DNA from: Escherichia coli
GTDB lineage: Bacteria > Pseudomonadota > Gammaproteobacteria > Enterobacterales > Enterobacteriaceae
DNA length: 870 nt
Direction: 5' to 3' (one strand)
Assembly: GCF_003334815.1 (NCBI RefSeq)
Contig: NZ_QOWO01000114.1
Below, piece after piece: positions 1 through 870 of the stretch. The number at the start of each line of letters is the position of its first letter. The stretch's first letter is position 1. The translations under genes were made by a program, and so were the position numbers. Below the pieces are notes generated by a model. That model made no database searches. It was not told the DNA's origin and was given only the letters and a program-made list of their open reading frames with translations.

Positions 1-26
1 TGTAGATTCAATTGGTCAACGCAACA
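1..26. repeat. Left terminal inverted repeat (IRL) of IS30
   Basis: Seen in sequence: the 5' terminus TGTAGATTCAATTGGTCAACGCAACA is the IS30 left end as I recall it. The right-end partner (ending ...GATTGAATCTACA in the reference) is outside the window, so the inverted-repeat relationship cannot be shown here. The 26-bp extent is taken from the literature, not measured. Confidence 0.8.
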
Positions 27-49
27 GTTATGTGAAAACATGGGGTTGC

Positions 50-54
50 GGAGG
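50..54 (+). promoter_or_regulatory. Shine-Dalgarno / ribosome-binding site for the transposase gene
   Basis: Seen in sequence: GGAGG at 50-54, 8 nt upstream of the ATG at 63 (spacer TTTTTTGA). An in-frame TGA at 60-62 closes the frame immediately upstream, so ATG 63 is the first possible start. Confidence 0.65.
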
Positions 55-62
55 TTTTTTGA

Positions 63-870
63 ATGAGACGAACATTTACAGCAGAGGAAAAAGCCTCTGT
101 TTTTGAACTATGGAAGAACGGAACAGGCTTCAGTGAAATAGCGAATATCCTGGGTTCAAAACCCGGAACGATCTTCACTATGTTAAGGGATACTGGCGGC
201 ATAAAACCCCATGAGCATAAGCGGGCTGTAGCTCACCTGACACTGTCTGAGCGCGAGGAGATACGAGCTGGTTTGTCAGCCAAAATGAGCATTCGTGCGA
301 TAGCTACTGCGCTGAATCGCAGTCCTTCGACGATCTCACGTGAAGTTCAGCGTAATCGGGGCAGACGCTATTACAAAGCTGTTGATGCTAATAACCGAGC
401 CAACAGAATGGCGAAAAGGCCAAAACCGTGCTTACTGGATCAAAATTTACCATTGCGAAAGCTTGTTCTGGAAAAGCTGGAGATGAAATGGTCTCCAGAG
501 CAAATATCAGGATGGTTAAGGCGAACAAAACCACGTCAAAAAACGCTGCGAATATCACCTGAGACAATTTATAAAACGCTGTACTTTCGTAGCCGTGAAG
601 CGCTACACCACCTGAATATACAGCATCTGCGACGGTCGCATAGCCTTCGCCATGGCAGGCGTCATACCCGCAAAGGCGAAAGAGGTACGATTAACATAGT
701 GAACGGAACACCAATTCACGAACGTTCCCGAAATATCGATAACAGACGCTCTCTGGGGCATTGGGAGGGCGATTTAGTCTCAGGTACAAAAAACTCTCAT
801 ATAGCCACACTTGTAGACCGAAAATCACGTTATACGATCATCCTTAGACTCAGGGGCAAAGATTCTGTCT
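63..870 (+). CDS. insI: IS30 transposase (DDE-type, InsI), N-terminal 269 codons; 3'-partial, continues beyond the window
   Basis: Seen in sequence: ATG at 63 with upstream SD; frame open with no stop to position 869 (870 is the first base of the next codon). Translation: MRRTFTAEEKASVFELWKNGTGFSEIANILGSKPGTIFTMLRDTGGIKPHEHKRAVAHLTLSEREEIRAGLSAKMSIRAIATALNRSPSTISREVQRNRGRRYYKAVDANNRANRMAKRPKPCLLDQNLPLRKLVLEKLEMKWSPEQISGWLRRTKPRQKTLRISPETIYKTLYFRSREALHHLNIQHLRRSHSLRHGRRHTRKGERGTINIVNGTPIHERSRNIDNRRSLGHWEGDLVSGTKNSHIATLVDRKSRYTIILRLRGKDSV. Established knowledge: this matches the IS30 transposase, which has two N-terminal HTH motifs and a C-terminal DDE core. Not in the ORF track because no stop codon falls inside the window. 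Confidence 0.93.
   Translation, partial: MRRTFTAEEKASVFELWKNGTGFSEIANILGSKPGTIFTMLRDTGGIKPHEHKRAVAHLTLSEREEIRAGLSAKMSIRAIATALNRSPSTISREVQRNRGRRYYKAVDANNRANRMAKRPKPCLLDQNLPLRKLVLEKLEMKWSPEQISGWLRRTKPRQKTLRISPETIYKTLYFRSREALHHLNIQHLRRSHSLRHGRRHTRKGERGTINIVNGTPIHERSRNIDNRRSLGHWEGDLVSGTKNSHIATLVDRKSRYTIILRLRGKDSV

Follow-up and report, generated by a model that had tools for sequence, protein, structure and literature searches.

We found that the DNA stretch analysed here, 870 bp long and hereafter called the window, is the left end of IS30, and that the transposase it encodes begins with a tandem pair of helix-turn-helix (HTH) modules, HTH1 and H-HTH2 (HTH2). The explanation that best accounts for the evidence as a whole, and in which we have high confidence, is that the two modules are homologous and serve the binding of the element ends and insertion at hot spots. 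The direct results behind it are the identity of the element, the intact reading frame, the two HTH folds seen in the model, their mutual homology and, in sequence comparisons, the restriction of HTH1 to a subgroup of the family. The two HTH motifs of IS30 and their roles are already known and form a textbook part of a textbook element; experiments carried out from 1990 to 2010 dissected how they act in end binding and in the selection of targets, and HTH2 is annotated by any domain scan. What the present check adds is a set of boundaries (nt 63-356 instead of 63-320), the description of HTH1 as a subgroup-specific module homologous to HTH2, and the finding that this copy is an R52H allele of the linker between them. 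The coordinates of all features are given in Table 1.

Table 1. Features of the window, with nucleotide positions in the window and residue numbers in the transposase (AF2, AlphaFold2 model)
Feature	Nucleotides	Strand	Residues	Basis
IS30 left terminal inverted repeat (IRL)	1-26	+		26-nt inverted repeat in the identical full copy (L001)
Shine-Dalgarno GGAGG (50-54) and transposase start ATG (63-65)	50-65	+		read from sequence
HTH1 module	81-194	+	7-44	AF2, Pfam HTH_38, profiles, conservation
HTH1, predicted helix 1	81-116	+	7-18	AF2
HTH1, predicted helix 2	129-152	+	23-30	AF2
HTH1, predicted recognition helix	162-194	+	34-44	AF2
Inter-module linker (GGIKPHEHKRAVAHLT)	195-242	+	45-60	AF2, conservation
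H-HTH2 module	243-353	+	61-97	Pfam HTH_38, AF2, conservation, phrog_4646
H-HTH2, predicted helix 1	243-278	+	61-72	AF2
H-HTH2, predicted helix 2	291-314	+	77-84	AF2
H-HTH2, predicted recognition helix	324-353	+	88-97	AF2
Rest of the ORF: basic helical region, then start of the DDE core	357-870	+		NF033563, Pfam rve

The IS30 element and its transposase frame

The element in the window is IS30 itself. Its 870 bp are the first 870 bp of IS30 and are 100% identical over this length to copies annotated as 'IS30-like element IS30 family transposase'. Of 5,426 complete E. coli genomes compared by megablast, 3,660 contain a match. For the parts of the element that lie beyond the window, an identical full copy from E. 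coli ATCC 11775 (L001) was used. In this copy the IRL, the only one of the two terminal repeats contained in the window, has its partner (IRR) 1169 nt away. The two repeats are 88% complementary, with 23 of 26 positions identical, and delimit a 1221-bp element that lies between the two copies of a 2-bp GT target duplication (GT/IS/GT). The L001 copy thus displays the inverted repeats of ~26 bp, the length of ~1.2 kb and the duplication of 2-3 bp that characterize IS30-family elements. It is located within a frameshifted, truncated IS3-family transposase gene (L001 1486-1566 and 594-1498), an arrangement that looks like nested mobile-element insertions, and a partial 'hypothetical protein' pseudogene annotated there by RefSeq crosses the IRL into the start of IS30.

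The transposase frame opens at nt 63, the same ATG position at which RefSeq starts the CDS of the identical copy, and continues for 269 codons up to the end of the window without a stop. In the identical copy it extends past the window to a full ORF of 383 aa. Across nt 63-356 the remaining two plus-strand frames are stop-rich. Both HTH motifs had been described as intact, with no frameshift or stop, and the uninterrupted frame confirms it. The NCBIfam model NF033563 (transpos_IS30), with a cut-off of 80 bits, scored 126.5 bits on the 269 aa (residues 89-267), as anticipated for an IS30-family protein. For the full protein of 383 aa the score rose to 277 bits, and Pfam rve matched its residues 229-320 (E 1e-13). 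The first catalytic aspartate, D237 (nt 771-773), is the sole triad residue inside the window. The triad of the full copy, D237-(55)-D293-(33)-E327, agrees with the spacing known for the IS30 family, D-(54-61)-D-(33)-E (PMC2516522).

On the minus strand, an ATG-initiated ORF of 64 aa (window 8-202) lies antisense to the IRL, the start of translation and the codons of HTH1. It was rejected as the real coding feature, since conservation, domain matches and annotation all track the plus-strand frame.

Two further observations concern the ends of the element. Folded as plus-strand RNA, nt 1-80 form a long hairpin (-19.7 kcal/mol, z -3.18; none of 200 shuffled sequences folds as well) in which nt 6-25 of the IRL pair with nt 45-64, thereby engaging part of the GGAGG Shine-Dalgarno sequence and the AUG. 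This hairpin could form only on read-through transcripts started outside IS30. Preventing translation from external transcription is a known insertion-sequence strategy, and the hairpin would fit such a block. A perfect TTGACA lies 13 nt from the tip of the IRR (L001 2703-2708), and the IRL has a TAGATT at window nt 3-8. If the two IS30 ends were abutted with 2 bp between them, these hexamers would be 17 nt apart. Copy-out/paste-in elements have been reported to form junction promoters in their circular or dimer intermediates, and by analogy the spacing would match a promoter of this type. Within the window, a scan of either strand for sigma-70 promoters and intrinsic terminators found none, and a search against Rfam returned no match.

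The two N-terminal HTH modules

The peptides quoted in the original prediction as the two HTH segments are both exact: TAEEK...TMLR corresponds to residues 6-42 (nt 78-188) and LTLSE...VQRN to residues 59-98 (nt 237-356). The interval of nt 63-320 proposed for them starts correctly, at the ATG, but ends too early. Codon 86 ends at nucleotide 320, and the interval drops the last 12 residues of the second segment, SPSTISREVQRN, and with them the complete recognition helix predicted for HTH2. The correct interval for the tandem HTH region is 63 (or 78) to 356.

An HTH profile search of the first ~110 residues, which had been proposed as a test, matched Pfam HTH_38 (PF13936) twice. The result that would have spoken against the prediction, an N-terminal region matching neither HTH nor IS30-family profiles, was thus not obtained. 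At module 2, the match covers residues 58-98 (nt 234-356; model positions 4-44 of 44) with an E-value of 7.9e-19 and 67.6 bits, and all 48 of the 48 aligned homologues match the profile there. At module 1, the match is weak and below usual Pfam significance (residues 6-41, model positions 6-41 of 44), with E-values of 0.0083 for the 269 aa, 0.0018 for the first 110 aa and 0.014 for the full protein. The PHROG entry phrog_4646 (transposase) matched residues 55-101 (E 4e-14). Other NCBIfam models (Csa3 HTH, ECF sigma region 4, IS21, IS1, IS630 and Cbp1) matched the N-terminal 110 aa far under their cut-offs, which we read as generic HTH resemblance only.

With residues 1-110 as the query, 3,560 of 1.84 billion representative proteins matched at E<=0.001, and many relatives at 40-50% identity span residues ~2-109 as one stretch. 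Conservation was derived from an alignment of 48 sequences, the query and 47 trimmed homologues (41-67% identity), across which the dual-HTH layout is retained. The conserved positions are W14, W17, G20 and I26 in module 1, and E63-R64-E65, I67, S68, G70, S76, R78, A81, L84, R86, S89, T90, S92, R93 and E94 in module 2, where S89, T90, R93 and E94 are invariant. Mean column identity is 0.49 for HTH1 versus 0.74 for HTH2.

The AlphaFold2 model computed on this alignment (mean pLDDT 90.9) consists of two three-helix bundles joined by the linker, with block pLDDT values of 80-93 for HTH1 and 95-96 for HTH2; the secondary-structure check suggested for residues 1-110 thus yielded the two HTH bundles expected. 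With the Pfam matches and the 3,560 related proteins, the model places the HTH signal above chance level. A BLASTP comparison of residues 1-54 with residues 55-113 produced no alignment, hence no HTH1-HTH2 similarity at this level, and a recent duplication of the modules was rejected on this basis. Profile-profile alignment with hhalign brought HTH1 (residues 2-49) and HTH2 (residues 56-103) together in register, including the trailing GG motif, with a probability of 97.9% and an E-value of 3.7e-13. The two modules are therefore homologous, and the term tandem is apt. What establishes HTH1 as a predicted HTH is the AlphaFold2 model together with conservation and the alignment of its profile with that of HTH2; the Pfam match does not do so by itself.

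No IS30-family transposase with a solved structure was found in searches of the PDB. With the single sequence, 2lvs was matched weakly (E 0.012); with the alignment profile, it was the best match and extended over both modules (positions 15-92, E 5e-8). Weaker profile matches were obtained for the HTH of gamma-delta resolvase and the PAI subdomain of Sleeping Beauty at positions 3-44 (E 0.005-0.007), for the bipartite domain of Tc3 (E 0.005-0.02 for the three matches together) and for IstA. Foldseek placed bipartite domains (2lvs, Tc3, Mos1, Pax and SETMAR) at its top ranks, 2lvs being first, with no PDB match at E<=0.001 and with TM-scores of ~0.35. Such low global TM-scores are expected if the two tethered bundles are oriented arbitrarily to each other, and a flexible two-domain model can be superposed globally only to a limited extent. 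The fold class is thus a predicted one, resting on the secondary structure of the model and on sequence profiles. Since the PDB searches returned no IS30-family structure, the two-bundle model provides a reasonable basis for binding or retargeting design.

Several of these results could also be accommodated by an enzyme in which only HTH2 binds DNA, residues 7-44 being a helical extension that resembles an HTH and acts, for example, in multimerisation or regulation. The weakness of the Pfam match at residues 6-41 (E 0.002-0.014), the missing BLASTP similarity to HTH2 and the lower conservation of HTH1 (0.49 versus 0.74) are compatible with it, as is the dispensability of HTH1, which is absent from most IS30-family members. 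However, residues 7-44 are modelled with confidence as a three-helix bundle with HTH geometry, and they align in register with HTH2 at 97.9% in the profile-profile comparison. In addition, the profile matches at positions 3-44 are DNA-binding HTHs, those of gamma-delta resolvase and Sleeping Beauty, 2lvs is aligned over both modules, and mutagenesis by Nagy and co-workers in 2004 is reported to implicate HTH1 in the choice of target DNA. Taken together, these points make an HTH2-only mode of binding very improbable, and we retain two homologous HTH modules, both predicted to contact DNA, as the preferred reading.

Distribution of HTH1 and the linker allele

To assess how widely HTH1 occurs in the family, 72,556 plasmids were searched by tblastn with the 269 aa as query. 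Copies resembling ISCfr4 and copies from Rhodococcus, at ~42% identity, align from residue 2-5. At 25-37% identity, ISApl1, ISAba125, IS1394, IS18, ISRme10 and many rhizobial and lactobacillal copies align only from residue 53-58. The annotated CDS of ISApl1, ISAba125 and IS1394 starts 12-21 nt upstream of the match, and their N-termini run directly into the HTH2 consensus, as in ISApl1 (MMSTSYRHLTINEREKI...). The family profiles begin in the same part of the protein: phrog_4646 aligns IS30 residues 55-101 to its positions 3-49, and the match to the NCBIfam IS30-family model begins at residue 89. An extra HTH followed by a GGI.P...R.R linker, which marks the dual-HTH layout, is found here, in the 47 homologues and in the ISCfr4-like and Rhodococcus copies, and is absent from ISApl1, ISAba125 and IS1394. 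Because the distant members align or start at residue 53-58, HTH1 is an extra module confined to IS30 and its close subgroup, and H-HTH2 is the family-wide module. The ascription of two HTH motifs to IS30 in the original prediction is therefore right for IS30 and this subgroup, but does not extend to the IS30 family as a whole.

Two proteins of the representative library have unusual arrangements of these modules. In a metagenomic protein of 465 aa (P0093), eight near-identical tandem repeats of ~57 aa, each like IS30 HTH1 (FTPEQKAEAIRLVREGKNF.EVAREINTSP.NVRNWIRAEEQRTGQQIVPL), come after a hydrophobic N-terminus; this protein is without a transposase core. A 260-aa protein of the IS30 subgroup (P0091) contains the linker-plus-HTH2 unit in tandem, with 'NVVREAGGMAPVW.GRSRKHLSLEDREDISRGLALEQSLRVIALGLGRPTSTVS' occurring twice; this repeat may reflect a genuine internal duplication of the module or else an artefact of assembly.

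The linker, residues 45-60, has no helix in the AlphaFold2 model, and its conserved positions in the 48-sequence alignment are G45, G46, P49, R54 and L59. Codon 52 (nt 216-218) reads CAT (His) in this copy versus CGT (Arg) in the majority allele (G217A, R52H), and a plasmid copy compared over 807 nt differs from the window at this base alone. Of 3,879 E. coli records, only 340 have the exact 61-nt stretch with G217A as their best match; in 3,529 the best match differs from it by one mismatch. Position 52 is an arginine in 36 of the 48 subgroup homologues, and another homologue also has a histidine. In the model, R52H sits outside both HTH bundles; the description of both motifs as intact therefore still holds.

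In paired-like domains, the segment equivalent to this linker typically touches the DNA minor groove. By analogy, R52H might define a natural IS30 variant with an altered affinity for the inverted repeats or an altered balance between hot-spot and end-directed targeting, although we regard this as unlikely. Related to it is the reading that HTH1 may have arisen by internal duplication of H-HTH2 in the subgroup of IS30 proper and may have brought hot-spot targeting with it. A further possibility, that the copy is a decaying or attenuated IS30 whose linker change impairs DNA binding despite intact motifs, would agree with the minority status of the allele (340 of 3,879 E. coli records) and with the prevalence of arginine at position 52 (36 of 48). 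We give it very little credence, since the identical copy retains the full 383-aa ORF, both inverted repeats and the 2-bp target duplication, and since hundreds of records, chromosomal ones as well as a plasmid, contain the allele, a distribution that fits spread via transposition. The histidine of the other homologue and the location of position 52 outside both modelled bundles also argue against a loss of function. An intact transposase with two HTH modules remains our reading of this copy.

DNA binding and comparison with known systems

The two IS30 motifs were reportedly described by Stalder in 1990 and Nagy in 2004, with roles in end binding and target choice. Nagy and co-workers are reported to have found that H-HTH2 is needed for end binding and for all transposition, and HTH1 for insertion at palindromic hot-spot (GOHS) targets. 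We propose that the N-terminal domain is built of two homologous three-helix modules of the HTH_38 type, HTH1 (7-44) and H-HTH2 (61-97), tethered by a conserved basic linker (45-60) containing Gly and Pro. Within the 26-bp inverted repeats, of which the IRL is present here, H-HTH2 would read the subterminal part, and it would position the C-terminal DDE core at the element tips. HTH1 would add a second DNA contact, needed for palindromic hot-spot insertion according to the reported mutagenesis. The anatomy seen here fits this picture, in which the well-conserved module 2 would read the subterminal repeat and the more variable module 1 would contribute a further specificity. End binding and the footprint come from the literature, and the assignment of DNA contacts to each module is our inference.

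A role of the IS30 N-terminal HTH region in inverted-repeat binding and target selection, as originally predicted, agrees with PMC7780238 and PMC1525189. In the former, an N-terminal fragment of ~17 kDa of the IS30 transposase is stated to protect bp 9-35 of the ends (Stalder 1990, cited in PMC7780238), and the terminal repeats of IS30 type are described as bipartite, with a subterminal site for the N-terminal domain and a terminal site for the catalytic domain (PMC7780238). According to the latter, IS30 requires a FixJ-like H-HTH motif for specific target DNA binding (Nagy 2004, cited in PMC1525189). In another member of the family, ISApl1, the isolated HTH domain shifts both IRL and IRR in EMSA (PMC10916398).

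Likeness to the H-HTH of the LuxR/FixJ type is one of fold class only: FixJ (1x3u) and NarL (1je8) appear over positions 51-107 at a non-significant E-value of 0.51, and the GerE match to the IS30 N-terminus is not significant either (E 4.1). The nearest relative with a solved structure is Cbp2 of Hyperthermus butylicus (2lvs), which shares the tandem HTH and basic linker. Unlike the IS30 transposase, Cbp2 is a stand-alone DNA-binding protein that lacks a catalytic domain and binds CRISPR repeats. The model for Cbp1 (NF040595) scored 14.6 bits on the IS30 N-terminus, against a cut-off of 140.

The Tc1/mariner and Pax domains (Tc3, 1u78; Sleeping Beauty PAI/RED; Mos1; SETMAR) consist, like the IS30 domain, of two three-helix HTH subdomains and a linker. 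In the Tc1/mariner transposases, the HTH pair is N-terminal to a DDE/D core and binds the transposon inverted repeats, the same logic as in IS30. The two groups differ in the family of the catalytic core, the transposition pathway and the target rules, and their sequence similarity is marginal. The IS30-type pathway is copy-out/paste-in, through a circle or dimer junction. The matches to the paired-like domains are marginal (profile E 0.007-0.02, Foldseek E 0.015-0.2, TM ~0.35), and the resemblance is architectural and analogous rather than a demonstrated membership.

Within the family, the single-HTH members ISApl1, ISAba125, IS1394 and IS18 share with IS30 the H-HTH2 (LT..ERE.I......G.S...IA..L.RS.STISRE..RN) and the DDE core that follows it, at 31-37% identity from residue ~55 on. 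They are without HTH1, their annotated proteins beginning 4-8 residues ahead of the position equivalent to IS30 residue 53-58. The InsI protein of IS30 described in the literature, with HTH1 and H-HTH2, belongs to the same element and is the same protein as that encoded in the window. Its motifs are found where the literature places them, and the window copy differs from the majority-allele InsI solely by R52H in the linker.
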